DNA from: Gulosibacter sp.
GTDB lineage: Bacteria; Actinomycetota; Actinomycetes; Actinomycetales; Microbacteriaceae
DNA length: 64,000 bases
Direction: 5' to 3'
Assembly: GCF_052090685.1 (NCBI RefSeq)
Contig: NZ_JBQDBE010000015.1
Span: 3,760-67,759 of the forward strand
The notes beneath the pieces were generated by a model. That model was not told the DNA's origin. It did not search any database and saw only the letters and a list, made by a program, of their open reading frames with translations. The translations under genes and the position numbers were made by a program. The number at the start of each line of letters is the position of its first letter. Position 1 is the first letter of the stretch. Shown piece by piece: positions 2,259 to 22,342 of the stretch.

Positions 2259-3734
2259 ATGACTTCGACTAGCGGCCTGTGGGGTCGAACCCGCCGCTTT
2301 GGCCTCCGAGCCGGCGCGGTCATGGTGCTCTCGTTTCTACTCATTGCACAGACTGCGATTACCGCGTCCGCGAAAGATCTCGATGACTACGCGACGTGGG
2401 ATGACGTCATCGCGGCGCAGGGTGATGTGGATGAGCAGAACCGGCTTATCGAAGAAATCAATGCCCAAATTGAGCAGCTTGAAAATGATGTTGCTGACGC
2501 GGAAATAGTCTCGGAAGAGGCCGGTCAGGCTTACTCGGATGCGGCCGATGCGACGACTGAGCAAAACGCGACCGTCTTCAACCTGCAGGAGCAGGCGGAC
2601 GATGCGGATGCGACCGCTACGGATGCGGAGCAGGAAGCGGGCGCGATGGCGGCCGCGATGTCGAACCGCGTGACAGTTGACCCCACGGTTCAGCTGCTCA
2701 CGGAGCCGGGCTCGGCGGACGACTTCCTGATGGGCATGTCGACCCTCTCGAAGCTCGGGACCCACAACGGGGCCGTGTACGAGGATGCGCTCAGCGCTCG
2801 GAACAACGCCGAGCAGCTCGGTGAGCAGGCCACCGCTGCTCTCGAAGAACTCGAACGACTCGAAGCTGAGTCGCAAGAAGCCTACGAAGTTGCGGTTGCG
2901 GCGCAAGAAGACTTGCAGACCAAGCGTGATGCCGCGATCACGCAGGGAACTGAGCTCGAAGCGATGCTCATCCCGCTGATGGAACACCGCGATGTGGTGC
3001 AGTCCGACTTCGAAGAGGGCGAGCGCCTTCGCGAGATCGAACGCCAGCGCATCGAAAAGGAACGCGCCGAAGCCGCTGCTGCTGCGGCTGCCGCCGCGGA
3101 GGCAGCGGCAGCGGAAGCTGCACGACAGAACCAGAACAATGGCGGTGGCAGCAGTAGCGGCGGCGGGGGCGGCGGAAGCAGCAGCTCGAATAGCTCCGGT
3201 GGCGGTGGCTCCAGTGGTGGTGGAGGCGGCGGCTCGTCAACTCCACCTTCGACCGGCGGCGGCGGCGGCGGTGGCGGCGGCTCCAGTGAAGGCGGCGGTT
3301 CGACCGCGAGTGCCGGCTATCACTACCCGATGTCTTCCTCGGGCTGGATCACCAGCCCCTACGGAATGCGTCTGCATCCCGTGTATTTCTACTGGCGGAT
3401 GCACAACGGTATCGACCTTGTTGTGCCGGGTGGAACCTGCTGGGCTCCGATCTACGCAGTGACCTCGGGCACCGTTGGCCTCGCGGGCTGGGTCGGCTCC
3501 TACGGAAACATGGTGTCCTACACCTCATCCGATGGCACCGTGTTCAATAACGGACACATCGCACCGGGCGGGATAAACGTCTGGGTTGGCCAAAAGGTCA
3601 GCGCGGGTGACGTCATCGGATACGCCGGGACCACCGGCGCGTCGACCGGCTGCCACTTGCACTTCGAGATCAAGCAGAACGGCAGCTACGTCGATCCCGT
3701 TCTCTGGCTGGCAAACCGGGGTATGTACTACTAG
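2259..3734 (+). CDS. Secreted M23/LytM-family peptidoglycan metalloendopeptidase with coiled-coil N-domain and Ala- then Gly/Ser-rich linker
   Basis: It has an N-terminal hydrophobic signal/anchor, a long acidic coiled-coil, then AAAAAAAAEAAAAEAA and a GGGSSS linker. The C-terminus HNGIDL...GYAGTTGASTGCHLHFEI carries the HxxxD and HxH M23 motifs. Confidence 0.88.
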   Translation: MTSTSGLWGRTRRFGLRAGAVMVLSFLLIAQTAITASAKDLDDYATWDDVIAAQGDVDEQNRLIEEINAQIEQLENDVADAEIVSEEAGQAYSDAADATTEQNATVFNLQEQADDADATATDAEQEAGAMAAAMSNRVTVDPTVQLLTEPGSADDFLMGMSTLSKLGTHNGAVYEDALSARNNAEQLGEQATAALEELERLEAESQEAYEVAVAAQEDLQTKRDAAITQGTELEAMLIPLMEHRDVVQSDFEEGERLREIERQRIEKERAEAAAAAAAAAEAAAAEAARQNQNNGGGSSSGGGGGGSSSSNSSGGGGSSGGGGGGSSTPPSTGGGGGGGGGSSEGGGSTASAGYHYPMSSSGWITSPYGMRLHPVYFYWRMHNGIDLVVPGGTCWAPIYAVTSGTVGLAGWVGSYGNMVSYTSSDGTVFNNGHIAPGGINVWVGQKVSAGDVIGYAGTTGASTGCHLHFEIKQNGSYVDPVLWLANRGMYY

Positions 3735-3806
3735 CGAGTTTTGTGAACGCCAGCGGCCGCGACAGTCGCGCGCTGGTGGCTGGTGGCCGCTGTAGCCATT
3801 GCAGGT

Positions 3807-3846
3807 AGCGCTCATCATGGTTCGAGTACCGACCATGATGAGCGCT
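3807..3846. terminator. Perfect 15-bp-stem hairpin between convergent genes
   Basis: agcgctcatcatggt-tcgagtaccg-accatgatgagcgct. There is no clear U-tract, so this may be a terminator or another structured element. Confidence 0.35.
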
Positions 3847-3906
3847 GCCAACCATGATGGCGAACGCGGAACTCGTCGCACCGAGGCGCTCGGCGCCCCA
3901 AATGAA

Positions 3907-3942
3907 ACGCGTTCCGCCCGGGACGCCCCGAGCGGAACGCGA
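3907..3942 (-). terminator. Probable intrinsic terminator of ppa
   Basis: cgcgttccgc...gcggaacgcg forms a 10-bp stem immediately after the ppa stop. On the minus strand it is followed by tttcattt. Confidence 0.5.
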
Positions 3943-3948
3943 AAACGA

Positions 3949-4434
3949 CTACTCGCCGGGAAATGCCTCGATCGAGCGCTGGACGATCTCGTCGGCCTCA
4001 GCGGCATTGCCCCAAGCATCCACCTTGACCCACTTGCCAGGCTCGAGGTCCTTGTAGTGCTCGAAGAAGTGCTTGAGCTGGTCGCGAGTGTTCTCGGGAA
4101 CATCCTCGAGCTCCTGCAGGTGCGAGAAGCGTGGGTCCTTGTGAGGGACGCAGAGGATCTTGTCGTCGCCGCCCGCTTCGTCGGACATCCGCAGCACGCC
4201 AATTGGGCGAACCTTGAGTCCGACACCCGGGAACACCGGGTATTCGAGCAGTACGAGCGCGTCGAGGGGGTCGCCGTCGTCAGCAAGTGTGTTCTCGAAG
4301 TATCCGTAGTCGACCGGGTACACGAACGGTGTGAACAGCACGCGGTCGAGGTAGACGCGACCGGTCTCGTGGTCAACTTCGTACTTGTTCTGGCTTCCGC
4401 GGGGGATCTCGATGACGACGTCATATGCGGCCAT
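3949..4434 (-). CDS. ppa: Inorganic pyrophosphatase (family I)
   Basis: [31 protein letters not shown]...[10 protein letters not shown]...DDKILCV is the classic soluble PPase sequence. The start was moved from the ORF-track start to the ATG at 4434 (161 aa). Confidence 0.93.
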
Positions 4435-4772
4435 GAAGGGTGCTCCTCTGGGTCGTTGATTGCAATGGATGCGTAGGGTCCAGGCTAGCGTGGCCCGGCT
4501 AATGCTTTCGTCCGAAAGGAACCTGATCGCCACCGGCAGCGCCAACTCACCTAAGATTGATGCATCTGGCAAAGCGGACACCGTGTCCATTTGGCGCGGT
4601 ATGTGGCGAGATACGACAGTCATTCGCGAGCTTCGACATCAACGCACCAATTACGGCTGCAAGACGCCAACGGCGAAACCAACCCACGAATGACTGCCGG
4701 CAGGCGCCAATAGCGACGACAACGCAAAATGACCCCGGTAAGTCACCGAGCACGACCTCGAGAAGGGCAGGC

Positions 4773-8764: not shown

Positions 8765-10741
8765 ATGAAGACGTTTAAGAAGATCATCAAGAGCCCAATT
8801 TTCATTGTGCTGATCGCGCTCATCGCGATTGGTGTTGGGTTTAGCTTTTTCACCTCGCAGGGTACGAGTGAAGTTACCACGCAAGAGGGCCTCGAGATGC
8901 TCGCCGAGGAGAAGGCGAAGGAAGTCACGATCACGCAGGGTGATAACCGCGTGACCATGGTGCTCGCCGAAGCCGACGACGAGTACGGCGAGAATGTCTT
9001 CTTCTACTACGTGGAGGCGCGCGCCGATCAGGTCATCGACGCGGTCGCCGCGGCAGAACCCGCCGATGGCTTTGACGACGAGGTGCCGGGCCCGAATTGG
9101 CTCTCCACGGCACTTTCGCTCTTGCTGCCACTGATGCTGATCGGTTTCTTCGTCTGGATCATGTTCTCAAGCATGCAGGGCGGGGGCGCGGGCGGCGCGA
9201 TGAAGTTCGCGAAGTCGAAGGCGAAACTCGTCTCGAAGGAAGACCCGCAGGTGACCTTCGCCGATGTCGCGGGTGCGAATGAGGCATTAGAAGAGCTCGC
9301 GGAAATAAAAGAGTTCTTGAAAGAACCGGCGAAATTCCAGGCCGTGGGGGCGCGCATCCCCAAGGGCGTGCTGCTCTACGGCCCGCCGGGAACCGGTAAG
9401 ACGCTCCTTGCCCGTGCGGTTGCGGGCGAGGCTGCCGTTCCTTTCTATTCCATCTCCGGTTCGGACTTCGTCGAGATGTTCGTGGGTGTCGGTGCGAGTC
9501 GTGTCCGCGACCTTTTCGAGCAGGCGAAACAAAACGCGCCAGCGATCATCTTCATCGATGAGATCGACGCCGTCGGTCGCCAGCGTGGCGTCGGCATGGG
9601 TGGCGGAAACGACGAGCGCGAGCAGACCCTGAACCAGTTGCTCGTCGAAATGGATGGCTTTGACGCGACGACGAACGTGATTCTCATCGCGGCTACCAAC
9701 CGGCCGGATGTGCTTGACCCGGCTTTGCTTCGCCCGGGTCGCTTTGACCGCCAGATCGGTGTGGATGCGCCGGATATGCAGGGTCGCGCGCAGATTCTCT
9801 CAGTGCATGCCAAGGGCAAGCCGCTCGCAAACGATGTCGACCTGAGCTCGGTGGCGCGAAAGACCCCCGGATTCACGGGTGCGGATCTCGCGAACGTGCT
9901 CAACGAGGCGGCGCTGCTCACTGCGCGCATGAACGCGCAGATCATCGATGCGCGAGCTATCGAAGAGGCCATTGACCGCGTGATCGCCGGGCCACAGCGA
10001 CGGAGTCGGGTCATGAATGACCAGGAGAAGCTGATCACCGCGTATCACGAGGGTGGCCATGCGGTCGCGGCAGCGGCGCTTCGCCACACCGACCCCGTGA
10101 CGAAGATCACGATCCTGCCTCGCGGTCGCGCCCTCGGATACACGATGGTGGTGCCGCTCGAGGACAAGTACTCGGTGACTCGCAATGAGCTGCTCGACCA
10201 GCTCACCTACGCCATGGGTGGCCGCATCGCTGAAGAGATCGTGTTCCACGATCCGACCACCGGTGCATCCAACGACATCGAGAAGGCAACGAAGACCGCC
10301 CGCAAGATGATCACCGAATACGGCATGTCGAACAAGCTCGGCGCGATGAAGCTCGGTGACAACGAGGGCGACTCGCCCTATTCGCAGTCGCAGGGCGCGC
10401 CGTACTCCGACGGCACCGCGCGCGAGATCGACCACGAGGTGCAGCAGCTACTCGAGAATGCGCTGCAGGAGGCGTACTGGGTGCTCAACCACAACCGCCA
10501 CGTCCTCGACCGCCTCGCAGCTGAACTGCTCGAAAAAGAGACCATCAGCCACGAGCACCTCGACGTGATCTTCGCCGATATCGTCAAGCTGCCCGAGCGT
10601 CCGCAGTGGCTGTCGAGCCCGGAGCGTCCGGTCAGCGACCAGCCGCCAGTGGAGTTGAAGCCTCACCTGCCGGTGGATGAACTCGGCCAGGGTGGTGGTC
10701 ACCACGGTGGTGGTTCGGCGAGCAATACGCGGGCTGATTAG
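8765..10741 (+). CDS. ftsH: ATP-dependent zinc metalloprotease FtsH
   Basis: It has two N-terminal TM segments, Walker [19 protein letters not shown], Walker [10 protein letters not shown], the SRH region, and the zinc motif HEGGHA. Confidence 0.97.
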
Positions 10742-10744
10742 TCA

Positions 10745-11917
10745 GTGACTGTAGACCGGGAGCGTGCTGCGGCTGCGATTCGAGAGTTCCTCGCAGCCGC
10801 GGGTTTGCGCGCCGATGACCCTCGCTTAGCTCGCACACCCGAGCGCGTCGCGGCTGCCGCCGAAGAACTACTCGGCGGCGAGGGCGTCGACCCGGTGCCC
10901 ATGCTGCGCGCCGGGCGAATCTCGGTCAGCGGCGACGCCGAGGTCCGTGGTGGCAGCGTAGATGGTGACCGCGGTGACCTCGGCAGCGGCAGCGGTGGTG
11001 GCGGTGACAGCGGTGGTGGCGGTGACGCCGCGCCGGGTACCCCAGCTTCTGCGCGGGATACCAACGCTTCCTCGTCAGATACCAGCGCTTCTTCATCAGA
11101 TACCACCGAAAGTGAAGTTGACCACTCTCTAGAAAGTGGTCAACTGCATTTCGGGTGGTCCTCAAATTCGGGCACGACCCGCCCCACGCCCGGTGCTCCC
11201 GCATCTTCGTCGGGTCCCCTCACTTCGACGCCCGGTGCCACCGCTTCAGCGCCGGATACCACCGAAAGTGAAGTTGACCACTCTCTAGAAAGTGGTCAAC
11301 TGCGTTTTGGGTGGTATTCAGGAGCGGCGACGGGCGGCGAAGCGGGCGGAGATCTGGGCGGCCAACCGGGCGGAGATCTGGGCGGTGAAGCGGGCGGAGA
11401 TCTGGGCGGTGAAGCGGGCGGAGACCTGGACGGCGAACCGAGCCGCGAAGCAGGAGGCGAACCGGGCAGCGAATCGAGCCGCGAATACACCGACGGCAAC
11501 CTCGTTCTCCTCCGGAACATCCGCTTCCGCTCGATGTGCGAGCACCACCTGCTGCCTTTCGACGGCTGGGTTCACCTGGCCTATCTCCCCGGCGACTCCA
11601 TCATCGGGTTCGGCCGACTCTACGATCTAGTCGAGATCTGCTCGAGCCGCCTGACCCTGCAGGAGCGCCTCGGAGAAGAGCTCGTCGATGCCGTCATGTC
11701 CGGACTCGACGCTCACGGCGCGCTCGCGGTGATCGAAGCTCGACAAGGATGCGTGGCAGACCGAGGCCCCCGGCAGTCAGATTCAGACTCGGTCACCTTG
11801 GCCGCACGCGGCAAATTGTATGACCCGCAGATCCGCGCGGATGCGCTGCGACTGATCGCGCTTGGCGGTAGCGACCGGGATGCCGACTCCACTGAGCGTG
11901 GCCACGGTCCCAGATAG
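10745..11917 (+). CDS. folE: GTP cyclohydrolase I with a large internal low-complexity insertion
   Basis: The N-terminus is ...RLARTPERVAAAAEELLGG. The C-terminal core is LRNIRFRSMCEHHLLPFDGWVHLAYLP...LTLQERLGEEL...VIEARQGCVADRG. About 190 residues of repeats lie between them, giving 390 aa against the ~190-200 aa usual for FolE. Confidence 0.85.
   Translation: MTVDRERAAAAIREFLAAAGLRADDPRLARTPERVAAAAEELLGGEGVDPVPMLRAGRISVSGDAEVRGGSVDGDRGDLGSGSGGGGDSGGGGDAAPGTPASARDTNASSSDTSASSSDTTESEVDHSLESGQLHFGWSSNSGTTRPTPGAPASSSGPLTSTPGATASAPDTTESEVDHSLESGQLRFGWYSGAATGGEAGGDLGGQPGGDLGGEAGGDLGGEAGGDLDGEPSREAGGEPGSESSREYTDGNLVLLRNIRFRSMCEHHLLPFDGWVHLAYLPGDSIIGFGRLYDLVEICSSRLTLQERLGEELVDAVMSGLDAHGALAVIEARQGCVADRGPRQSDSDSVTLAARGKLYDPQIRADALRLIALGGSDRDADSTERGHGPR
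11099..11159. repeat. 61-bp intragenic element, copy 1 (contains palindrome gttgaccact-ctctagaa-agtggtcaac at 11117-11144)
   Basis: gataccaccgaaagtgaagttgaccactctctagaaagtggtcaactgcatttcgggtggt is repeated at 11255-11315 with 2 mismatches. Confidence 0.9.
11255..11315. repeat. 61-bp intragenic element, copy 2 (palindrome at 11273-11300)
   Basis: The sequence matches copy 1 except for two positions (tgcGtttTggg). It lies 156 bp (52 codons) downstream, in the same frame. Confidence 0.9.
11344..11439. repeat. Tandem 24-nt repeat x4 inside folE (encodes GGDLGGEA-type units)
   Basis: The units gggcggagatctgggcgg(ccaacc/tgaagc) start at 11344, 11368, 11392 and 11416. Confidence 0.85.
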
Positions 11918-12088
11918 CCGGGACAAGATTTTTGATGAAGCAGACTCCGTAGGCTGAACATTGCTGAGACCCTCGACGTCGTAGAGCCGTAATCCGCGTG
12001 TTGTCGGAAGGCTGGACTAAAGTGTGCAGAAGATATCAGCCGTGCGTGGCCAATTACCTTTATTGCGCGGGGAAGAGGGCTGACCTAC

Positions 12089-12424
12089 ATGTTGCTAGCA
12101 ATTACAGCTTTTATTGACGTTCCAGAAGGAGTGCCGACCGTAGGGGTGGTTAAGGCATTTCGTGACGGGCTCGAAGAACTCGAAAAGCGCGAGTCTCTAA
12201 TCGATCCTGACGTTACAGTTATGAAGGCACTCCACCGAGTGAGAGTGCAAATTACGCTCGCCATGGACCCACCTGACGATGATTTGATCGAGAGTGTCCT
12301 CAGCGATGCGTTGGAAATTGGCTCATCGGGGGAGTTCGTCCTCGTTAATGATGAAGACGATGAGTTAGCCACCAATCTTCAGAAGCCTCTGCATCGCAGG
12401 GGCGCGTTGCTCACCCCGGCATGA
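12089..12424 (+). CDS. Hypothetical small acidic protein (111 aa), first gene of an orphan pair
   Basis: The ORF has a plausible RBS (gaagaggg ~10 nt upstream) and a 4-nt ATGA overlap with the next gene. No family was recognised. Confidence 0.5.
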   Translation: MLLAITAFIDVPEGVPTVGVVKAFRDGLEELEKRESLIDPDVTVMKALHRVRVQITLAMDPPDDDLIESVLSDALEIGSSGEFVLVNDEDDELATNLQKPLHRRGALLTPA

Positions 12425-13281
12425 CTGCCGCGCGCCGTGCCATCGCTTTGTCGACAGATGAACGAGTAAACCTGGCGATATGGCGAGGTACGAAGCAATA
12501 CGCTCCCATCGTCCTGCAGGCTATTGCAACCGTAGGAATCGGTTTCGTTCCCGGTGGGTTCGCACAGAGCAGTCCATACTCCGAATGGGCTTGGCCGCTC
12601 CTGATAGCTTCCATTCTCGCGGCTCTTGCGGGAGGAATCTGGGGTGTACGTCAGCGGCGAAGCACCGCAGAACTTGAGCGGCACGCGGCAGGTGCACATG
12701 AACGTGCTGAAGCACGGGCGGATGCGGTGAGGCGAGCATTGGATCATATTGTCCAGGAGATTATGGATGATCTAAGAGTGAACCGTGCAGAAACGCGAGG
12801 ATCGGTGTACAGGCATCGGAATGACGATTTTCTGTTGGTTTCGCGTTGGTCGGAGAACCCGAAACTGCACAAGATCGGGACACTTGAATTTTCTGATGAC
12901 CAGGGTGTACTTGCTGAGGCATGGGAACGCGGATTTGCGAGTACGCAAGACATGGATGAAGACCTTGAAAAGTGGCGAATCATGCAAGAGGAGCAATACA
13001 ACGTGTCGAGAGATCGCGTTCTGAAACTCACTATGCATGCTCGGTCGATGCTTGCTCTCCGGATCGATCACAACGGTGACCAGCTGGGTGCGATCGTGTT
13101 GGAAAGCCGTCGTCCGCGTGGGCTCACCACAAGGCATCTTGCACAGTTGAAGGAACACATCCTCGTCCGAGCAATAGCACCACTACTCTCTATCCCCTGG
13201 TCACATTTACCGAGTGCTGCGACTTTATCCACAGAGGATCTAGGCAATCCTGGTGTCGAAACTTCCTTATCGCGGGAATAG
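12421..13281 (+). CDS. Membrane protein with two N-terminal TM helices, a coiled segment and a GAF-like C-terminal domain
   Basis: The TM segments are YAPIVLQAIATVGIGFVPGGF and WAWPLLIASILAALAGGIWGV. The C-terminal part ...SVYRHRNDDFLLVSRWSE...SMLALRIDHNGDQLGAIVLESRRP resembles GAF-domain strands. Confidence 0.5.
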   Translation: MTAARRAIALSTDERVNLAIWRGTKQYAPIVLQAIATVGIGFVPGGFAQSSPYSEWAWPLLIASILAALAGGIWGVRQRRSTAELERHAAGAHERAEARADAVRRALDHIVQEIMDDLRVNRAETRGSVYRHRNDDFLLVSRWSENPKLHKIGTLEFSDDQGVLAEAWERGFASTQDMDEDLEKWRIMQEEQYNVSRDRVLKLTMHARSMLALRIDHNGDQLGAIVLESRRPRGLTTRHLAQLKEHILVRAIAPLLSIPWSHLPSAATLSTEDLGNPGVETSLSRE

Positions 13282-13478
13282 CTCCTTAGCGCGCTGTGCT
13301 TACCCAAGCGCCTAAAACTGGAAACTCACGAGCGAATCTCCCGAAGTCAGCCAATGGTTTGTGCACTTTAGTGAACGCGCGGGCTTCACTCAAGTATTGC
13401 AACCCGGACCGGAAAAGACTTCGGTAACGGATAGATTACGGATGTTTGTGAATTTCATCTGAGCCCGTGAGGACATCC

Positions 13479-14837
13479 ATGAAGACTCGCCGCATGATTG
13501 GCGCCGGCGCCGCCACCGCAGCTCTCCTTCTCGCAGGAGCGGTTGCGACTCCAGCGTTTGCTGCTGACCAGACCGTCACTGATCTGAACGATGCATCGTT
13601 GACTGCCGAATCACTCGTCGAGAGCCTTCTGGGTGACGACACTGAGGTCAGTAACGTGACCTTTACCGGTGACCCGCGGGGAGCTGGTGTCGCGAGCGGT
13701 TTTGAAGACGTCTTCGGTATCGACGGCGGTGTCGTGCTTGCCAGTGGTGCAGTTGCCGGATCGTCAAGCATCATCCTGGGGCCGAACACGAGTGACGGCA
13801 CTTCGGTCAGCCTGGGAGCGCCCGGTGACACTGACCTCGACGCTATCGTTGCCCCTAACTCGACACGCGACGCTTCAGTCCTCGAGTTCGACTTCGTACC
13901 GCAGAGCAGCACGATTACGTTCTCGTATGTCTTCGGCTCGGATGAGTACCAAGAATATGTAGATAGCTCATTCAACGATGTCTTCGGCTTCTTCGTAAAC
14001 GGCACCAACTATGCCACCGTGAATACCGCGGACGGTGTCGTTCCAGTTGCGATCAACTCGATTAACCACAAGACGAACTCATCGTTCTACGTCGATAACT
14101 ACGGCGAAAACAACACCAACTTCAACACGGAACTCGACGGCTTCACCGTTGTGCTCACCTTTGAAGCACCGGTAAATGCTGGCGAGGTCAATCACATCAA
14201 GCTGGCCATCGCGGATACTTCCGACCGGTCTCGCGACTCCGCGGTGCTCATCGCCGCAGGCAGCTTCAAGTCGAACACCGCGCCTGTCGCAAACGACGTC
14301 GCCAAGGAAACCGAGTTTGACACTCCAGTCGACGTCACGCTTGACGGCACCGACGCAGACGGGGATGCACTGACTTACGAAATCGTCGATGCACCAGCCG
14401 CTGAGCAGGGCACCGTCTCGGCTGTGGACGGCAACAAGGTCACCTTCACTCCGGCCGAAGGATTCACCGGCGATGCCACGTTCACCTACCGCGTGAACGA
14501 CGGCTCGGTGAACTCGGCGCCGGCAACCGTAACGGTTACCGTGCTTGAGGAAGGCACCGTCATCCCGACGCCGACGCCGACGCCGACCCCAACTGAGACC
14601 ACGACGGCACCAACCACCACGCCTCCGACGACCGACCCGGCCACGTCGGTTCCCACCGCGACCGATTCAGAGTCGCCAAAGCCGGACAAGGGCGACAAGC
14701 CAGCTAAGGGCGACCAGGATGACGACGCGCTCGCATCCACCGGTGCCAGCGACATGGGTCTGCTGATCGGCCTCAGCGCAGCGCTCATGCTGGCCGGTGG
14801 CCTCGCCTTCGCCGCAAACAAGCGTCGCCGGGCATAG
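13479..14837 (+). CDS. Cell-wall-anchored surface protein (choice-of-anchor-L-like domain + cadherin/VCBS-like repeat + Pro/Thr stalk + LAxTG sorting signal)
   Basis: Signal peptide ...AVATPAFA. Domain motifs are NDVFGFFVNG...ELDGFT...IADTSDRSRDSAVLI, then DGTDADGDALTYEIV...TFTYRVNDG. A PTPTPTPTPTETT stalk follows, and the C-terminus is LASTG + hydrophobic + KRRRA. The start was chosen at ATG 13479 (gagga RBS). Confidence 0.8.
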   Translation: MKTRRMIGAGAATAALLLAGAVATPAFAADQTVTDLNDASLTAESLVESLLGDDTEVSNVTFTGDPRGAGVASGFEDVFGIDGGVVLASGAVAGSSSIILGPNTSDGTSVSLGAPGDTDLDAIVAPNSTRDASVLEFDFVPQSSTITFSYVFGSDEYQEYVDSSFNDVFGFFVNGTNYATVNTADGVVPVAINSINHKTNSSFYVDNYGENNTNFNTELDGFTVVLTFEAPVNAGEVNHIKLAIADTSDRSRDSAVLIAAGSFKSNTAPVANDVAKETEFDTPVDVTLDGTDADGDALTYEIVDAPAAEQGTVSAVDGNKVTFTPAEGFTGDATFTYRVNDGSVNSAPATVTVTVLEEGTVIPTPTPTPTPTETTTAPTTTPPTTDPATSVPTATDSESPKPDKGDKPAKGDQDDDALASTGASDMGLLIGLSAALMLAGGLAFAANKRRRA

Positions 14838-14898
14838 TTGAGCCGCGGCACGGTCTAGCCGCTACCGGCTAGACACCGCGGCACCGCGACCTCCCAAC

Positions 14899-14946
14899 AA
14901 AAGCGCTACACCCGACCCCATCACGGGGCCGGGTGTAGCGCTTTTC
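14899..14946. terminator. Bidirectional intrinsic terminator between surface-protein gene and katG
   Basis: aaaagcgctacacccg...cgggtgtagcgctttt is a long GC-rich stem flanked by an A-run and a T-run. Confidence 0.7.
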
Positions 14947-14975
14947 GCTTCGGACAAGGCCAAAGCCGAAGTCGA

Positions 14976-17255
14976 CTACACCAGGTCGAAGCGGTCGAGC
15001 TCGGTGACCTTGGCCCAGGCGGCGACGAAGTCCGCAACGAACTTCTCGGTGGCGTCATCGCTCGCGTAAACCTCGGCGACCGCGCGCAGCTCCGAGTTGG
15101 AACCGAAGAGCAGGTCAACGCGGGTGCCACGGCCGACGAGCTCTCCCGAACCCTCGCGGCGACCCTCGAAGGCCTGCGAGTCCGGATCGAGCGGCTTCCA
15201 AGTCGTGCCGAGGTCGAGCAGATTCACGAAATAGTCGTTCGTGAGCTGCCCCGGGCGGTCGGTGAACACACCGTAGTCCGAGCCGTCCCAGTTCGCGGCG
15301 AGCGCGCGCAGTCCACCCACGAGCACCGTCATCTCGGGCGCCGAGAGGGTCAGCAGGTTCGCCTTATCCACGAGCGCGTGCTCCTGCGGGAGCACCGCGT
15401 TCGGCCCGTAGTAGTTCCGGAAACCATCCGCGATCGGCTCGAGCACGCCGAAGGAATTCACATCGGTCTGCTCCGCAGAAGCATCCGTCCGGCCCGGGTG
15501 GAACGGCACGGTGACCTCGTGACCCGCATCCGCCGCCGCCTTTTCGATGGCCGCGTTGCCCGCGAGCACGATCAGGTCGGCGAGCGAAACCCGCTTGCCA
15601 TCGGCGCGGCCCTCGTTGAACGAAGCCTGCACCCGCTCGAGCACCTCCAACACGCGGCCGAGTCGCTCGGGGTTGTTCGCGCTCCAGTTGCGCTGCGGTT
15701 CGAGGCGGATGCGCGCACCGTTGGCACCGCCGCGCTTGTCGCTACCGCGGTAGGTGGATGCTGCCGCCCAGGTGGTCGCGACGAGGTCGCCGATGCTGAG
15801 CCCCGCATCCAGAATCTGCTGCTTCAGCGAGGCGGCTTCGGATGCGTCGATCAGCTCGTGATCGACGGCCGGCACCGGATCTTCCCAGATGAGGGCTTCC
15901 TGCGGAACTTCCGGCCCGAGCAGGCGAATCTTCGGGCCCATGTCGCGGTGGGTGAGCTTGTACCAGGCACGTCCGAAGGCATCCTCGAAGGCCCCGAGGT
16001 CGTCCTTGAAGCGACGCGAGATTTTCGCGTACTCGGGGTCCACGCGCAGCGAAATGTCGGTGGTGAGCATGCGCGGTTCGCGGCGGCCGCTACCGTGCGC
16101 CATTGGCACCATGTCCTCACCGCCGCCGTCCTTCGGGCGCCACTGGTAGGCGCCGGCCGGGCTCTTCATGAGTTCCCACTCGTAGGCGTAGAGGATGTGG
16201 AAGAACTCGTTGTCCCAGCGTGTGGGGTGGTAGGTCCAGGTGACCTCGATACCCGAGGTGATCTGGTCATCCCCCTTGCCGCTGGCGTGGTTGTTCTTCC
16301 AGCCAAGGCCCTGCATTTCCAGGCCCGCCGCTTCGGGGTTGTCTTCGAGATTCGAGTCGGGCGCGGCGCCGTGGGTCTTACCGAAGGTGTGGCCACCGGC
16401 GATGAGCGCGACGGTTTCCTCGTCGTTCATCGCCATGCGGGCGAAGGTTTCGCGGATGTCGTGGGCCGCGGCGAGCGGGTCAGGCTCGCCCTCCGGGCCT
16501 TCCGGGTTCACGTAGATGAGACCCATGGTGGTCGCGGCGAGCGGCTTTTCGAGGTCACGGTCACCGGTGTAGCGCTTGTCGGTGCCGAGCCACGTGGTTT
16601 CGCTGCCCCAGTAAACATCGTCGTCCGGTTCCCAGGCTTCCACGCGACCGCCGCCGAAACCGAAGGTCTTCATGCCCATCGATTCGAGCGCGACGTTCCC
16701 AGCGAGGATCATCAGGTCGCCCCAGGAAATGTTCTTGCCGTACTTCTTCTTGACCGGCCAGAGGACGCGGCGCGCCTTGTCGAGACCGACGTTGTCGGGC
16801 CAGCTATTGAGCGGAGCAAAACGCTGCTGGCCGGTGCCCGCACCACCGCGACCGTCGTAGATGCGGTAGGTGCCCGCGGCGTGCCAGGCCATGCGGATGA
16901 TCAGCGGACCGTAATTGCCGAAGTCGGCAGGCCACCATTCCTGCGAGGTCGTGAGGGTCTGGGCGATCTCTTGCTTGACCTCGTCGAGGTTCAGTGTGTC
17001 GAAGGCCGCGCGATAGTCGAAGTCCTCACCGATCGGGTTCGCGACGGCGGGGTTCTTCGCAAGGATCTTCAGGTTGAGCTGGTTTGGCCACCACACCTGG
17101 TTGGCGTTGCCGGCGGTGGGGTGAGGCTGATTGTGCACGACCGGGCAGGTGGCCTCTTCGGCCTGCGCTTCGGCGGCGTCGGAGACGGTAACTGACTGGT
17201 CAATGTCAGTGTCGTTCTCGCCGATTTCGGTGACGGCTTCGTCGGGGTTGGACAT
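14976..17255 (-). CDS. katG: Catalase-peroxidase
   Basis: ...[11 protein letters not shown]...[11 protein letters not shown]...[10 protein letters not shown]... with a duplicated peroxidase-fold architecture. The start was chosen at the ATG preceded by ggaagga (759 aa). Confidence 0.96.
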
Positions 17256-17396
17256 TTCAGATCCTTCCATGATCACGGGTGGTCGTTCGGGGTGGTGGTT
17301 GTTGGATGCGGGATGCGGCTACCGGTTCAGTCGGTGGGAGCATGCGGGCGCAGGGGTGGTGGATGCGCGGGGTGGCGGATGTAGGGTCGGCATCGG

Positions 17397-18083: not shown

Positions 18084-18935
18084 ATGACTGATTCCTCGCA
18101 GACCTCTTCCGCCAATACCGAGATCATGGCGGTGCTGAACGTCACGCCCGACTCGTTTTCGGATGGTGGCTCGGTCGAGGCGCCGAGCGAGGCGGAGCGC
18201 ACGGCGCGCGCGGTTGAGAAGGCACTGACCATGGTCGAACAGGGCGCGACGATCGTCGACGTGGGCGGTGAATCGACCCGTCCGGGCGCCCAGCGAGTAC
18301 CGCAGGCGGAAGAATCCGCACGCGTAGTGCCCGTGGTGCGCGAACTCATTCGTGCCGGAGTAACGGTCTCGGTCGACACGATGTATGCGGCTACCGCAGC
18401 CGCCTGCCTTGAAGCCGGAGACGTCTTCATCAATGACGTTTCGGGCGGCCTCGCCGATGACGCCATGCTCCGCACCGTCGCCGAGCGCGAGGGTCGCTTC
18501 ATCCTGAGCCACTGGCGTGGCCATTCAGTGGTGATGAATGACCTCGCGGTGTACGAAGACGCCGCAACTGAAATCAAGTCAGAGTTGCTGCAGATGCGGG
18601 ATCGGGCCGTCGAAGCGGGGATAGCGGCCGATCGGATTGTGCTCGACCCCGGCCTCGGGTTCGCGAAGGACCGAGACGACAACTGGTCGGTACTGCAACG
18701 GCTCGACGAATTCCTGACACTCGGGCATCCACTGCTCATCGGCGTCAGCCGCAAGCGCTTCATGGGTGCGCTGCTCGAGCCGGATGCGCACGTGCACGAG
18801 CGGGATCTGCCCACCGCGATCGTCTCGGCCCTTTGCGCCGAACGAGGCGTGTGGGGCGTTCGGGTACACAACGTCGAGGCGACCAAAATCGCGATGGATG
18901 TCGTGGCCGCCTGGCAGCAGGGGAGGCAAAGCTAG
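18084..18935 (+). CDS. folP: Dihydropteroate synthase
   Basis: IMAVLNVTPDSFSDGG...DVGGESTRPGA...SVDT...NDVSGG...DPGLGFAK...GVSRKRF. Confidence 0.95.
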   Translation: MTDSSQTSSANTEIMAVLNVTPDSFSDGGSVEAPSEAERTARAVEKALTMVEQGATIVDVGGESTRPGAQRVPQAEESARVVPVVRELIRAGVTVSVDTMYAATAAACLEAGDVFINDVSGGLADDAMLRTVAEREGRFILSHWRGHSVVMNDLAVYEDAATEIKSELLQMRDRAVEAGIAADRIVLDPGLGFAKDRDDNWSVLQRLDEFLTLGHPLLIGVSRKRFMGALLEPDAHVHERDLPTAIVSALCAERGVWGVRVHNVEATKIAMDVVAAWQQGRQS

Positions 18936-18978
18936 CCCCCACGCACCTCGACAGGCGGGCATTGATATCGTCGTACGG

Positions 18979-20676
18979 ATGGCAAAACGACGCTCGGCAT
19001 CGCTCCCGCTGACCGAACGCACGAAGATTCGCCGCCGAAACCTGGCGATTATCGCGGCGGCGGCAGTTGCGACACTCATCATAATTGTGGCGGTGTTCCC
19101 CAGAAGTGATGAGCCGCATACTGGACAAAGCACCTCGACGCCGGGGCCTTCTTATCCGCAAGACATTGAAGAGTCCTGGGCTTCAGACCCGGCGAACCAG
19201 ATAAATGCTCCTGGTTTTGATCCCTATCCGCCCACGTTTAAGTTGCCCGATGCGTCCACGCTGACAGAGGGTGCGGTCACCACGGATTTCGCTCTTGAGT
19301 CTGAAACGACACCCTTCGACGGCACCGTGGGGTTCAGTTTTGAAGGGACCGATTTAGCATCGCCGATGTGGGGTTCCAATGACTCGAATATCGGCGAGAT
19401 GCTGGCGGGCGTGCAGAATCCCGTGTTGCGCTTCGGTGGAATCCGCGGCGATAAGTACCTGTGGTGGACGTCTTCGAACGAACCGATGCCTGAGTGGGCT
19501 GAAGTCACCGTCACCCCTGAAAATCTCGAGCATGTCGCTGCCGTTGCCGAAGAAGCGGATGCGTCGGTCAGCTTGGTCGTGAGTCTCGCGCGCGAAGACG
19601 CTGATCGTGCGGCTGATATGACGGCACACGCGCGCGAGATCTTTGGCGAGCGCCTCGTCGCCGTCACGGTCGGCAATGAGCCCAATGGCTATTTCCAGCC
19701 AACCGACCCGGAGAGGTCGACGCGGGGCGAAGATTGGGGTCCAGCGGAATACAAAGAGTCTCTCGAGGAGTTTGGTGCAACGATCGAGGAGGCCTCGCCG
19801 GGAACTCCCTTCAGCGGTCCGGGAGCCTACGACGCGCCGTGGTGGCGTGCGTATGCCGACTCGAATCTGCCGAATAAGCAGTCGCTGTCGATGCACTGGT
19901 ATCCGCTGTGGGATTGTGCAGGGCCGGATACCTCAACCGCGAATCCGACGTTGGAAGACCTCGTTTCACCACAACTGCGCGAAAGCGCAAACAAGATTGT
20001 CGGTATGGGGGCTGCGACCGCAGCGGAATACGGGTTACCGCTGTGGATCGAAGAAACGGGCCCAACTTCGTGCCCAGGGGGCAACGAAACTTCGCGCACC
20101 CACGCTCAAGCACTGTGGACTACGGATTACGTCCTCACCGCGGCGCAACTGGGAGCTGAGCGCATCGCATTCCACTCCACACTGATGGCCTGCGAAGGTG
20201 GCGCCCCCATGAGTCCGGTATGTGCGACTGGCAGTTACGGCGACCCGGGGGTGCTCCTCGAGGGCCGCACGAGCTATCTGGCGCTCATGCAACTGAGCTG
20301 GATTCCCGAGGGTGTGATGCTGTCCCCCACGGTCGACGGCGACGGCACAATCATGGTGCACGCCGTGCTTGGCAACGATGGTTCAATCACGGTGGTCATC
20401 AGTGATCTTCGGGATCCGGCCTCGACGAGCAACGCGATACCGGTTGAGGTGGCAGCGCCCGAGGGGCTCGATCAGGATGCACCGAGCAGTTGGTCTCCCG
20501 TCAGCGGTTCCCAGCTCAGCGGCGATGCGCTATCTGCGCAAGCGAGCACGCTCAGCGCCCTGGTGCCGGTTGATCATGAGCTCGCGGCACTCGAATTGAG
20601 CAGCAATCAAACGCTCACGGTTGCCAGTGAGCCGGGATCCACGACGATGCTCGTTCTCGAGCCGACGAGCAATTGA
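18979..20676 (+). CDS. Membrane-anchored clan GH-A glycoside hydrolase (GH79/GH30-like)
   Basis: N-terminal anchor LAIIAAAAVATLIIIVAVF. It has ...VLRFGGIRGD..., the candidate acid/base VTVGNEPNGYF and the candidate nucleophile LWIEETGP. The start was chosen at ATG 18979. Confidence 0.6.
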   Translation: MAKRRSASLPLTERTKIRRRNLAIIAAAAVATLIIIVAVFPRSDEPHTGQSTSTPGPSYPQDIEESWASDPANQINAPGFDPYPPTFKLPDASTLTEGAVTTDFALESETTPFDGTVGFSFEGTDLASPMWGSNDSNIGEMLAGVQNPVLRFGGIRGDKYLWWTSSNEPMPEWAEVTVTPENLEHVAAVAEEADASVSLVVSLAREDADRAADMTAHAREIFGERLVAVTVGNEPNGYFQPTDPERSTRGEDWGPAEYKESLEEFGATIEEASPGTPFSGPGAYDAPWWRAYADSNLPNKQSLSMHWYPLWDCAGPDTSTANPTLEDLVSPQLRESANKIVGMGAATAAEYGLPLWIEETGPTSCPGGNETSRTHAQALWTTDYVLTAAQLGAERIAFHSTLMACEGGAPMSPVCATGSYGDPGVLLEGRTSYLALMQLSWIPEGVMLSPTVDGDGTIMVHAVLGNDGSITVVISDLRDPASTSNAIPVEVAAPEGLDQDAPSSWSPVSGSQLSGDALSAQASTLSALVPVDHELAALELSSNQTLTVASEPGSTTMLVLEPTSN

Positions 20677-20771
20677 CACGGAGCGATCGAGAACTTCAGC
20701 AATCAAGCATAGATGGGGCAGGATGGATGCATGACTCCACGGCAGCACAGGTACGAGTTCGGTGAGCGTTC

Positions 20772-21791
20772 ATGAACGGTGACGCGACTGCCGCGAGCTC
20801 CACGCCAGTCGGACCCAACGGCGCCCAGGTGCACCCTGCACTGCAAGCAATCAGGCTGATGCCGACCCGCCCGGGTCCGGAAGCGCATCCGGCCTTGCCC
20901 GCACCGGAACTTGATCGCATTACGATCAAGCGGCTGCACGTGCACGGTCGCCACGGCGTCTTCGCCCACGAGCGCGCCTCCGGGCAGGACTTCTACATCG
21001 ATGCCGAGGTCTGGATCGACACGCGGGCTGCGGCGCAGACGGACGAGATCGAAGACACGCTGCACTACGGGCACCTCATGCGCGCGCTCTACGAAGTCGC
21101 CATGAAAGAGCCGGTCGACCTCCTCGAGACGCTCGCGGAACGGCTCGCCGCGGTGACCTTCGCGTTTTCCGGCCCACAAGCAGTGCGCATCACGGTGCAC
21201 AAACCGCAGGCTCCCGTGAAGTTGCGATTTGAGGATGTCACGGTGTCGGTACTTCGCTACCGTCCCGAGGGCGCCGAGCCAGAGGTACCACGTCTGCCGC
21301 ACTCGCGCGCGGTGATCGCGCTCGGCGCCAACCTTGGTGCGCGTGAAGCGGCGATACGCGACGCGATGGATGAGATTGAGACGATCGAAGGCGTGTGGCC
21401 ACACCGCCGTTCGAGCCTTTATGAGACACCCGCGCTCACGACGCACGGCATTGATGAGACCGTTCCTTCCTACCTCAACGCTGTTATCACGGTGCATACC
21501 GATCTGGCCCCACACCAGTTGCTCGATCAATTGCAGGCGATTGAGGATGCGCACGGTCGCGTCCGCCAGGAACGGTGGGGGAGCAGGACTCTCGACCTCG
21601 ATCTCATCGAGCACGGCGGGCTCGAGTTCGAGGATGCCCGGCTCACGCTGCCGCATCCTCGCGCCTTTGAGCGTGCTTTCGTGCTCGCGCCCTGGGCCGA
21701 GATCGAACCGGAAGCCGCGCTCACGAACCGAGGTCCGATTCGACAGCTGCTCGAGCAAACGAATGACGAAGTGCAGCGGTATCAGGCATGA
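20772..21791 (+). CDS. folB/folK: Fused dihydroneopterin aldolase / 6-hydroxymethyl-dihydropterin pyrophosphokinase
   Basis: The FolB part is ITIKRLHVHGRHGVFAHERASGQDFYIDAEVW...TLHYG. The FolK part, AVIALGANLG...SSLYETPA...YLNAVITV...ERWGSRTLDLDLI...LTLPHPRA, lies in the same frame with no stop between. The N-terminal ~45 aa and the exact start are uncertain. Confidence 0.85.
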   Translation: MNGDATAASSTPVGPNGAQVHPALQAIRLMPTRPGPEAHPALPAPELDRITIKRLHVHGRHGVFAHERASGQDFYIDAEVWIDTRAAAQTDEIEDTLHYGHLMRALYEVAMKEPVDLLETLAERLAAVTFAFSGPQAVRITVHKPQAPVKLRFEDVTVSVLRYRPEGAEPEVPRLPHSRAVIALGANLGAREAAIRDAMDEIETIEGVWPHRRSSLYETPALTTHGIDETVPSYLNAVITVHTDLAPHQLLDQLQAIEDAHGRVRQERWGSRTLDLDLIEHGGLEFEDARLTLPHPRAFERAFVLAPWAEIEPEAALTNRGPIRQLLEQTNDEVQRYQA

Positions 21792-22342
21792 CACGCACGA
21801 ACCCGTGGCTGCTTCTGCTGCTTGTGCTCGCGGGCGGCGCCGTCGGCTGGGCCGCAGAGACATGGCTGACCTCGAACGGCAGCGGCACGCTGCTGCCCTC
21901 GATGCCTTTTTCTATCACCTTGCTCGGGCTCGCGGTGGTGGTACTCGCGATCGCGTGGCCCGTTCGTCGATACACGGTTGCAGTGCGCAAAGCGAATGAA
22001 GCCCTGGACCGTTCGCACCGGCACGGAAACGGCGCGGCCGAGACTCAGGATGCGCAGGCAGCGGCGCGCGAGGTCAGTCGGCTTCGCGTCGACCCATTTC
22101 GGGCCACGTTCGCGGTTGCACTCGCGAAGGCTTCGAGCTTGGCCGGAAGCTTGTTCATGGGCGGTTCGGCTGCGGCGCTGACCTGGCTATTGACCCGCAC
22201 GGTGGTCGGCTCGGGAGTGGCAGAGTCGGTGTTCGCGACGATCGCTGCGGCGGTCCTCGTGATCGCTGGGATTATTGCCGAATCCTGGTGTGTCCTACCA
22301 CCGGAGGACGGCGAAGGTGCTGAAACGCTTTCACCGAGCTAA
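21788..22342 (+). CDS. DUF3180-type membrane protein (conserved partner of folK in actinobacteria)
   Basis: Four predicted TM segments, a 4-nt overlap with folK, and the usual synteny. Confidence 0.65.
   Translation: MTRTNPWLLLLLVLAGGAVGWAAETWLTSNGSGTLLPSMPFSITLLGLAVVVLAIAWPVRRYTVAVRKANEALDRSHRHGNGAAETQDAQAAAREVSRLRVDPFRATFAVALAKASSLAGSLFMGGSAAALTWLLTRTVVGSGVAESVFATIAAAVLVIAGIIAESWCVLPPEDGEGAETLSPS

Follow-up and report, generated by a model that had tools for sequence, protein, structure and literature searches.

In the 64,000-nucleotide stretch of Gulosibacter sp. DNA analysed here (contig NZ_JBQDBE010000015.1, positions 3,760 to 67,759, referred to below as the window), the gene folE (10745–11917, plus strand) encodes a GTP cyclohydrolase I of type IA with 390 amino acids, in which a long repetitive insertion is present in the loop covering the active site. 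We propose that this is a functional FolE encoded by a folate operon, whose lid loop has been colonised by a genus-specific palindromic element, inflated by slippage repeats and tolerated as a disordered loop, and we give this explanation a probability of about 0.68. The folE gene of this Gulosibacter is probably functional, and we infer that the insertion is translated and that the enzyme is catalytically competent. In this model the lid loop would have grown by approximately 187 residues through the arrival of the element and the amplification of repeats around it.

The identity of the gene was supported by the open reading frame, by the Pfam family PF01227 (GTP_cyclohydroI) and by alignments with solved structures. 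The reading frame starts with a GTG located 4 nt downstream of the ftsH stop codon, according to the list of open reading frames of the window. The PF01227 match (E-value 6e-41) was split in two, one part covering the N-terminus and the other residues 250–371 (profile positions 56–178), and with 140.2 bits for a cut-off of 27 the protein passed the Pfam family test. FolE chains of the PDB matched the product with E-values from 1e-13 to 4e-27 (HMMER). On the left of the insertion, the N-terminal helical segment (10745–10918, plus strand; residues 1–58, the last being I58) was recognised from the alignments and from a predicted local distance difference test (pLDDT) above 90. On the right, the catalytic core (11495–11914, plus strand; residues 251–390) was delimited by residue mapping, by a pLDDT above 90 and by a ratio of nonsynonymous to synonymous substitution rates (dN/dS) of 0.09–0.18. 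Neither the 390-residue product nor FtsH gave an exact match when looked up in public assemblies. No second folE was found in the window with tblastn, and the supplement of the Gulosibacter molinativorax genome paper contained no cyclohydrolase entries.

The Gly/Ser/Asp/Ala/Glu/Thr-rich insertion (10919–11494, plus strand; residues 59–250) stood out in pLDDT, in composition and in GC content at third codon positions (GC3). Its predicted product includes the peptide DTNASSSDTSASSSDTTESEVDHSLESGQLHFGWSSNSGTTR, and 81% of the residues of the insertion are Gly, Ser, Thr, Ala, Pro, Asp or Glu, with 33 Asp and Glu against 7 Lys and Arg. All of the repeats described here were on the plus strand. The leftmost were G-rich 9/18-nt tandem repeats (10964–11026; GDRGDLGSGSGGGGDSGGGGD), detected by Tandem Repeats Finder and as repeat family D3. 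They were followed by 2.9 copies of a 21-nt tandem repeat (11045–11105; DT[NS]ASSS), also detected by Tandem Repeats Finder, and every 21-nt unit opened with GATACCA, as does the left arm of the palindrome. Palindrome copy 1 (11096–11167, core 11100–11160; inverted repeat I3, nhmmer E-value 6e-22), read in frame as DTTESEVDHSLESGQLHFGW, and palindrome copy 2 (11251–11322, core 11256–11317; inverted repeat I2, nhmmer E-value 2e-23), read in frame as DTTESEVDHSLESGQLRFGWY, were both predicted to form hairpins. Sequence comparison showed that the spacer between them (11161–11255; SNSGTTRPTPGAPASSSGPLTSTPGATASAP) was made of degenerate 21-nt units. Beyond copy 2, 12/24-nt tandem repeats (11331–11485; Tandem Repeats Finder, family D1) encoded GGDLGGEA 4.4 times and then degenerate units; the 4.4 copies of the 24-nt unit, with 90% matches, occupied positions 11332–11437 and the 12-nt periodicity continued to 11485. 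The two 61-nt elements were 97% identical to each other, with two differing positions, and the 72 nt upstream of each were only 64% identical. The 21-nt periodicity was visible when the flanks were compared: they were 64% identical when offset by 156 nt and 61% when offset by 177 nt, for a background of 27 ± 6%. No intein or other known domain was found in residues 59–250 with Pfam and NCBIfam, and no promoter or terminator signature was found inside the insertion. An intein was considered as the source of the insertion and rejected, the segment being devoid of domains, of low complexity and predicted to be disordered.

The position of the insertion was determined through the relative P0007, a protein without the insertion that carries the same active-site Gln as the window FolE (see below) and could be aligned without gaps to the human enzyme GCH1. 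The segment GRI-AAPDS-GLV of P0007 corresponded to AIF-DEDHD-EMV of the human protein, which places I58 of the window at human F122 and G251 at E128. Thus the stretch from the clasp residue to strand beta-1, five residues long in the standard loop, has 192 residues here. In human GCH1, residues 115–130 constitute "region A", a surface lid that adopts an ordered form above the active site once the substrate is bound; F122 is the clasp of this lid, and its replacement by Ala (F122A) inactivates the enzyme (PMC7750480). The AlphaFold2 model (alignment A1) showed a pLDDT above 90 at residues 1–60 and 251–380, and values of 31–58 with no secondary structure at residues 61–250. The insertion is best read as an acidic loop, predicted to be disordered, on the exterior of the decamer.

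Most of the 141 nearest representatives at 50% identity with a measurable loop had the standard length within three residues. Only Gulosibacter and Pseudoclavibacter-type sequences were expanded, by 8–52 extra residues. The same loop varied by 0 to about 60 residues among relatives, and their inserts were unrelated in sequence to that of the window. The lid-loop site is a clade-specific expansion hotspot of which the window is the extreme case. A preliminary description of this DNA had claimed an in-frame repeat insertion of about 190 codons between the N-terminal helices and the core, built from 21-nt, 61-bp and 24-nt repeats, in an enzyme that it took to be either unusually decorated or drifting towards a non-catalytic role. 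The first of these readings is supported: the insertion is real and in frame, with about 187 extra residues, each of the three repeat types was recovered by Tandem Repeats Finder and by the repeat finder, and the comparison of folE length in relatives, which that description had proposed, showed it to be by far the longest at this site. Separately, a FolE homologue of Pseudoclavibacter was observed to be fused to a dihydropteroate synthase (PF01227 and PF00809, approximately 600–670 residues, proteins P0016–P0064), and these fusions were annotated as dihydropteroate synthase only.

Both 61-nt elements were near-perfect inverted repeats, palindromic over their whole length, a point that was absent from the preliminary description. 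The hairpin of copy 1 had a predicted energy of −33.4 kcal/mol (z-score of −6.4 compared with shuffled sequences) and that of copy 2 an energy of −38.8 kcal/mol. The exact palindrome core gave no match in the GTDB representative genomes. Among these representatives, a degenerate pattern of the arms found Gulosibacter chungangensis KCTC 13959, with matches on two of its scaffolds; the remaining genome matches and all metagenome matches corresponded to a single arm and were discarded as chance matches. With an nhmmer model, four full copies were located in G. chungangensis, at positions 4350–4422 of scaffold L004 and 964–1036, 3291–3364 and 4688–4760 of scaffold L001, together with half copies at 4603–4626 and 4781–4808 of L001. 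None of these copies was inside a gene, and convergent genes bordered three of the four sites. The consensus hairpin of the six full copies contained 28 pairs, with compensatory changes at seven of them. Rfam contained no family for the element and gave sub-threshold matches to microRNA-like hairpins only. Within the insertion, only the palindromes matched DNA of relatives. No additional copy was present in the rest of the window or in the 3 kb beyond its right end, in 20.8 kb around folE of G. molinativorax (L013), in 16.8 kb around folE of G. chungangensis (L015) or in three further related loci. As far as seen, the palindrome family is genus-restricted and sparse. A possible 3-nt duplication (TCA) was visible beside copy 1 only, and none was evident at the other copies.

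Two arrangements in G. chungangensis deserve mention. Upstream of clpC (L001, 4603–4810), a full palindrome was accompanied by tandem half copies of the left arm, with a period of about 44 nt, and by a lone right arm. By analogy, this cluster and the GATACCA-initiated 21-nt units of the window suggest slippage at the base of the hairpin. On the same scaffold, an open reading frame of 439 codons (3241–4560) had palindrome copies on both flanks; it may be a coincidental neighbour or a carrier of the element. A DUF559-type endonuclease was considered for this carrier role, and the reading frame had no Pfam match.

Read on either strand, the element contains stops in two of the three frames and has a single open frame, which encodes [DN]TT..[AE]VDH..E.GQL.F.WY. 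Both folE copies occupy this sole open frame, and the host reading frame is intact. GC3 was 0.75–0.78 in ftsH, the folE core, folP and folB-folK, 0.565 in the insertion and 0.33–0.43 in the palindromes. The low GC3 indicates that the insertion is young, not adapted in its codons and unshaped by long-term coding selection. Two additional open reading frames, at 10926–11204 (minus strand) and 11292–11630 (plus strand), cross the repeats, and the one on the minus strand re-encodes the palindrome peptide (NAVDHFLESGQLHFRWY). They are by-products of the palindromy and of the GC richness, and not genes.

We propose the following scenario for the formation of the loop. The colonising element would be a palindrome of approximately 65–70 bp of the repetitive extragenic palindromic (REP) or miniature inverted-repeat transposable element (MITE) type, normally intergenic and here present twice, each time in its stop-free frame. 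One element would have entered the DNA encoding the folE loop, and slippage at its base would have generated the 21-nt array. The second copy would have arisen by a duplication of about 156 nt or by a further insertion, and the unrelated G-rich 9/18-nt and 12/24-nt arrays would then have expanded on either side. The whole tract, amplified around the elements in 9/18-, 21- and 12/24-nt units by a slippage-type process, would yield on translation a disordered loop, acidic and rich in Gly and Ser, which the enzyme would tolerate since it protrudes from the decamer surface. Both the mobility of the element and the sequence of events are what we infer from the present arrangement.

The catalytic residues were examined by alignment with an E. 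coli FolE sequence that had been checked to be identical to PDB entries 1FBX and 1GTP. The Zn ligands Cys110, His113 and Cys181 of E. coli are retained as C265, H268 and C336, and His112, Gln151 and Glu152 as H267, Q306 and E307; the CEHH motif lies at 11537–11548 (plus strand) and QERL at Q306–L309. The equivalents of R65 (R34 in the window) and R185 are retained as well. In HMMER alignments to solved FolE structures, IEARQGCVADRG of the window fell on IEAEHLCMAMRG, MEAEHMCMTIRG and IEATHMCMVMRG, and in the alignment with the verified E. coli protein Q334 (codon CAA, 11744–11746) corresponded to His179. The statements of the preliminary description that the core motifs were intact and that a Gln stood at the position of His179 were both borne out by these alignments.

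This Gln was present in all nine sequences of the Gulosibacter clade (the window and P0001–P0008), within EARQGCVADRG or EA[SA]QGCVTARG, including members without the insertion, and His was kept in all 16 more distant relatives of the alignment. P0007 was then searched exhaustively with HMMER against 1.84 billion representatives, and in the 137 nearest alignable clusters (P0085–P0214) the position was Gln in 24, Pro in 3, Asp in 1 and Glu in 1. Most Gln-type representatives from outside the Gulosibacter group had a His-type sequence as their nearest neighbour. Gln-type representatives retained C110, H112, Q151 and E152, and also H113 and C181 with one exception each. Two Gln-type genes were placed in their genomic context (L026, 6001–6597, and L027, 6001–6567). 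P0145, from a Microbacteriaceae without loop insertion, belonged to a canonical tilS-hpt-ftsH-folE-folP-folB-folK operon, and P0126, from an LpxC-encoding bacterium of another phylum, followed an SDR gene, a FolB-like gene and a PTPS gene. The change from His to Gln is thus recurrent and selected, and it occurs in genes that lie beside users of the FolE product. Its recurrence beside folate and pterin genes argues against a dead enzyme, short of proving a normal chemistry. The Gln would be older than the insertion and separate from it, and it is compatible with the requirement of the operon for the enzyme, since the whole genus shares it and other lineages of FolE have it too.

Over 190 core codons, dN/dS was 0.087 between the window and G. 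molinativorax, 0.124 between the window and G. chungangensis and 0.176 between these two species, with dS values of 0.7–1.3. Values for ftsH were 0.05–0.075, the folE core being modestly higher. The folE core is under purifying selection. In every relative examined folE headed the folate operon, and in G. molinativorax the order ftsH-folE-folP-folBK-DUF3180 was intact. The idea of the preliminary description that the enzyme was drifting towards a non-catalytic role does not agree with a Gln fixed in the clade and recurrent elsewhere, with a core dN/dS of 0.09–0.18 and with a location in the folate operon.

Several observations weigh against the proposed explanation. All four NCBIfam FolE models matched the product below their curated cut-offs (148.9 for a cut-off of 162 with NF006826, 109.1 for 181.6 with TIGR00063), which we attribute to the split match and the divergent sequence; as a consequence, annotation pipelines may under-call the gene. 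Three further residues differed from E. coli, S135 being replaced by Gly, K136 by Arg and R139 by Asp. According to its title, Bracher et al. 1999 (J Biol Chem 274:16727, cited in PMC7750480) describes the formation of the formamidopyrimidine triphosphate by E. coli FolE mutants at His179. Such mutants reportedly stall at this intermediate, so that an enzyme with Gln cannot be taken for granted to be fully active. By analogy with the human F122A mutant, inactive through a change in the same loop, a large insertion next to the clasp residue might be costly. Concerning the element, a profile of its peptide (tandem query) detected no other protein at an E-value of 10 or less among 5.8 billion, and in-frame copies are therefore uncommon, a single case compared with the genome-wide habit of Rickettsia. 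Two copies were found in approximately 67 kb of this genome, both inside folE, so that the element is at most putatively mobile in this strain. Copy 2 may have arisen when some 156 nt were duplicated locally, as the flanks share the degenerate 21-nt periodicity, and at the loci examined neither a clear target-site duplication nor a cognate transposase was identified near the element.

The observations on the enzyme could also reflect a decayed or repurposed FolE, whose activity would be abolished or altered by the loss of His179 and by the insertion in the lid, dihydroneopterin triphosphate being supplied by a FolE2 (GCYH-IB) or a second FolE encoded elsewhere. Q334, the three neighbouring substitutions, the NCBIfam scores, the product reported for the E. 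coli mutants and the inactivity of human F122A all point in this direction, as does the breaking up of the folate operon by inserted genes. Purifying selection is, in addition, compatible with a changed function. We nevertheless find such a loss or change of activity unlikely. The dN/dS of the core, at saturating dS, is unlike that of relaxed selection, the Gln is also fixed in clade members without insertion, and the Zn ligands, H112, Q151, E152, R65 and R185 are retained. The gene has stayed first in the folate operon in each relative, and the Gln-type FolE recurs independently, adjoining PTPS and FolB genes in another phylum. It is also conceivable that the insertion has been co-opted. Its hairpins (rounded, −33 and −39 kcal/mol) could modulate the ftsH-folE transcript, at the level of translation, stability or processing, the acidic lid could tune the access of the substrate, or the slippage repeats, whose tandem units are divisible by three, could give phase-variable enzyme levels. 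The greater identity of the palindromes (97%) than of their flanks (64%) could reflect a constraint on the hairpins, the stem of the family is kept through compensatory changes, and the lid loop controls the activity of the human enzyme (PMC7750480). However, the tract is absent from relatives, by codon position it is composed like non-coding DNA of recent origin, the hairpins are followed by neither a T-run nor a terminator signature, and the identity of the copies is equally explained by recent duplication or gene conversion. A sliding-window RNA fold of the folE genes of relatives was uninformative because GC-rich DNA folds strongly throughout. A role of this kind seems to us quite improbable.

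An artefact of assembly, with repeats and palindromes mis-joined or collapsed within folE, had also to be considered, palindromes and tandem repeats being error-prone in this respect. Contigs from the public runs ERR12057369, ERR12057367 and SRR25395063 (L020–L025) were 100% identical to the window, so that the same strain is present in these runs. The independent short-read contig L024 began at position 11527, approximately 40 nt past the repeat tract, and hence did not span it, and the databases contained no protein identical to the 390-residue product. On the other hand, a real tract would be expected to interrupt the contigs of another data set at the edge of the repeats, as observed. The frame is open across 576 nt, including two elements that are open in one frame of three, the two copies differ at two positions and have different flanks, and related species are expanded at exactly the same folE site. 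The preserved frame, the non-identical copies and the expansion of related genes at this site make an artefact very improbable. The functional enzyme with a colonised lid loop is the explanation that we retain.

The genes surrounding folE belong to a conserved neighbourhood. Upstream, ftsH (8765–10741, plus strand) is part of the conserved order tilS-hpt-ftsH-folE, established from the reading frames and from the comparison of contexts. Downstream, the rest of the folate operon (18084–22342, plus strand) was identified with Pfam and consists of folP (18084–18935), a folB-folK fusion (20772–21791) and a DUF3180 gene (21788–22342). In the window the operon is interrupted by two inserted regions, at 11900–17300 and 18940–20700, the first having a GC content of about 50% between 11900 and 13450. 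The gap between folE and folP contains an uncharacterised open reading frame of 286 amino acids, a gene for a surface protein of the Big_9/Cadherin-like type and, on the other strand, katG, and that between folP and folBK a secreted protein of approximately 600 residues without Pfam match. Different genes were inserted after folE in G. chungangensis (L015, 6900–12600) and in another relative (L018, 800–7100). In SGH_MAG_46, the metagenome-assembled genome of a relative, the gene upstream of folE was called as only a 267-residue Peptidase_M41 fragment of FtsH (L019, 9201–10004), preceded by an RNB-family gene and a small open reading frame; either ftsH is disrupted there or the assembly may be at fault.

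In comparison with known systems, the closest precedent for the folE palindromes appears to be the Rickettsia palindromic elements (RPEs; Ogata et al. 2000 Science, 2002 Genome Res), which are described in PMC10969869 as sequences of approximately 100–150 bp found in dozens of genes per genome. The analogy is one of features and not of sequence comparison. Like the RPEs, the Gulosibacter element is a dispersed palindrome located in frame in a housekeeping gene, encoding a conserved peptide and, according to the structure model, placed at a surface site tolerated by the fold. The RPEs belong to an alphaproteobacterial intracellular parasite, whereas the present element is shorter (about 65–70 bp) and resides in a free-living, high-GC actinobacterium. 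Unlike the RPEs it is in frame in one gene only, as the search of the 5.8 billion proteins indicated, and not in many. If our explanation is true, translated selfish palindromes, best known from Rickettsia, extend to such an actinobacterium. With REP elements and bacterial MITEs such as Correia, ERIC and BOX (PMC10969869), the element shares the nature of a short, dispersed and imperfect palindrome, and the copies of G. chungangensis are likewise intergenic, mostly between convergent genes, with a stem maintained by compensatory changes. It differs from them in having, at the loci examined, no RAYT or insertion sequence partner, and in lacking a clear target-site duplication and a GTAG-type motif at its ends. 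The window copies, contrary to extragenic REP sequences, are intragenic, and the apparent copy density is low.

As compared with canonical FolE (GCYH-IA; E. coli 1GTP/1FBX and human GCH1), the window enzyme has the PF01227 fold, the Zn triad, His112, Gln151/Glu152, Arg65 and Arg185, and an operon context with folP and folB-folK. It departs from the canonical enzymes by the Gln in place of His179, by Gly, Arg and Asp in place of Ser135, Lys136 and Arg139, and by a lid loop of 192 residues instead of five. The E. coli His179 mutants were made in the laboratory, whereas the Gln of the window is a natural state under selection, found in the folate or pterin clusters of several lineages. This recurrent natural replacement of His179 by Gln is at odds with the E. 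coli mutagenesis if that is interpreted simply, and of all the findings it best merits laboratory work. A broader reading, which we consider rather unlikely, would combine both aspects: the palindrome would be a mobile, stop-free hairpin element able to settle in essential genes, an actinobacterial counterpart of the RPEs, and the Gln-type FolE an unrecognised natural catalytic variant, which would either dispense with the canonical general acid in completing the reaction or release the formamidopyrimidine intermediate to a second enzyme. With regard to region A of human GCH1, the insertion lies in the same surface loop, between the equivalents of F122 and E128. The bacterial enzyme differs by having no GFRP partner, an Ile instead of a Phe as the clasp residue and a loop of approximately 190 residues predicted to be disordered. 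The construction of such a loop by palindromes and slippage repeats would represent a natural experiment on the tolerance of a catalytic lid in an essential enzyme.

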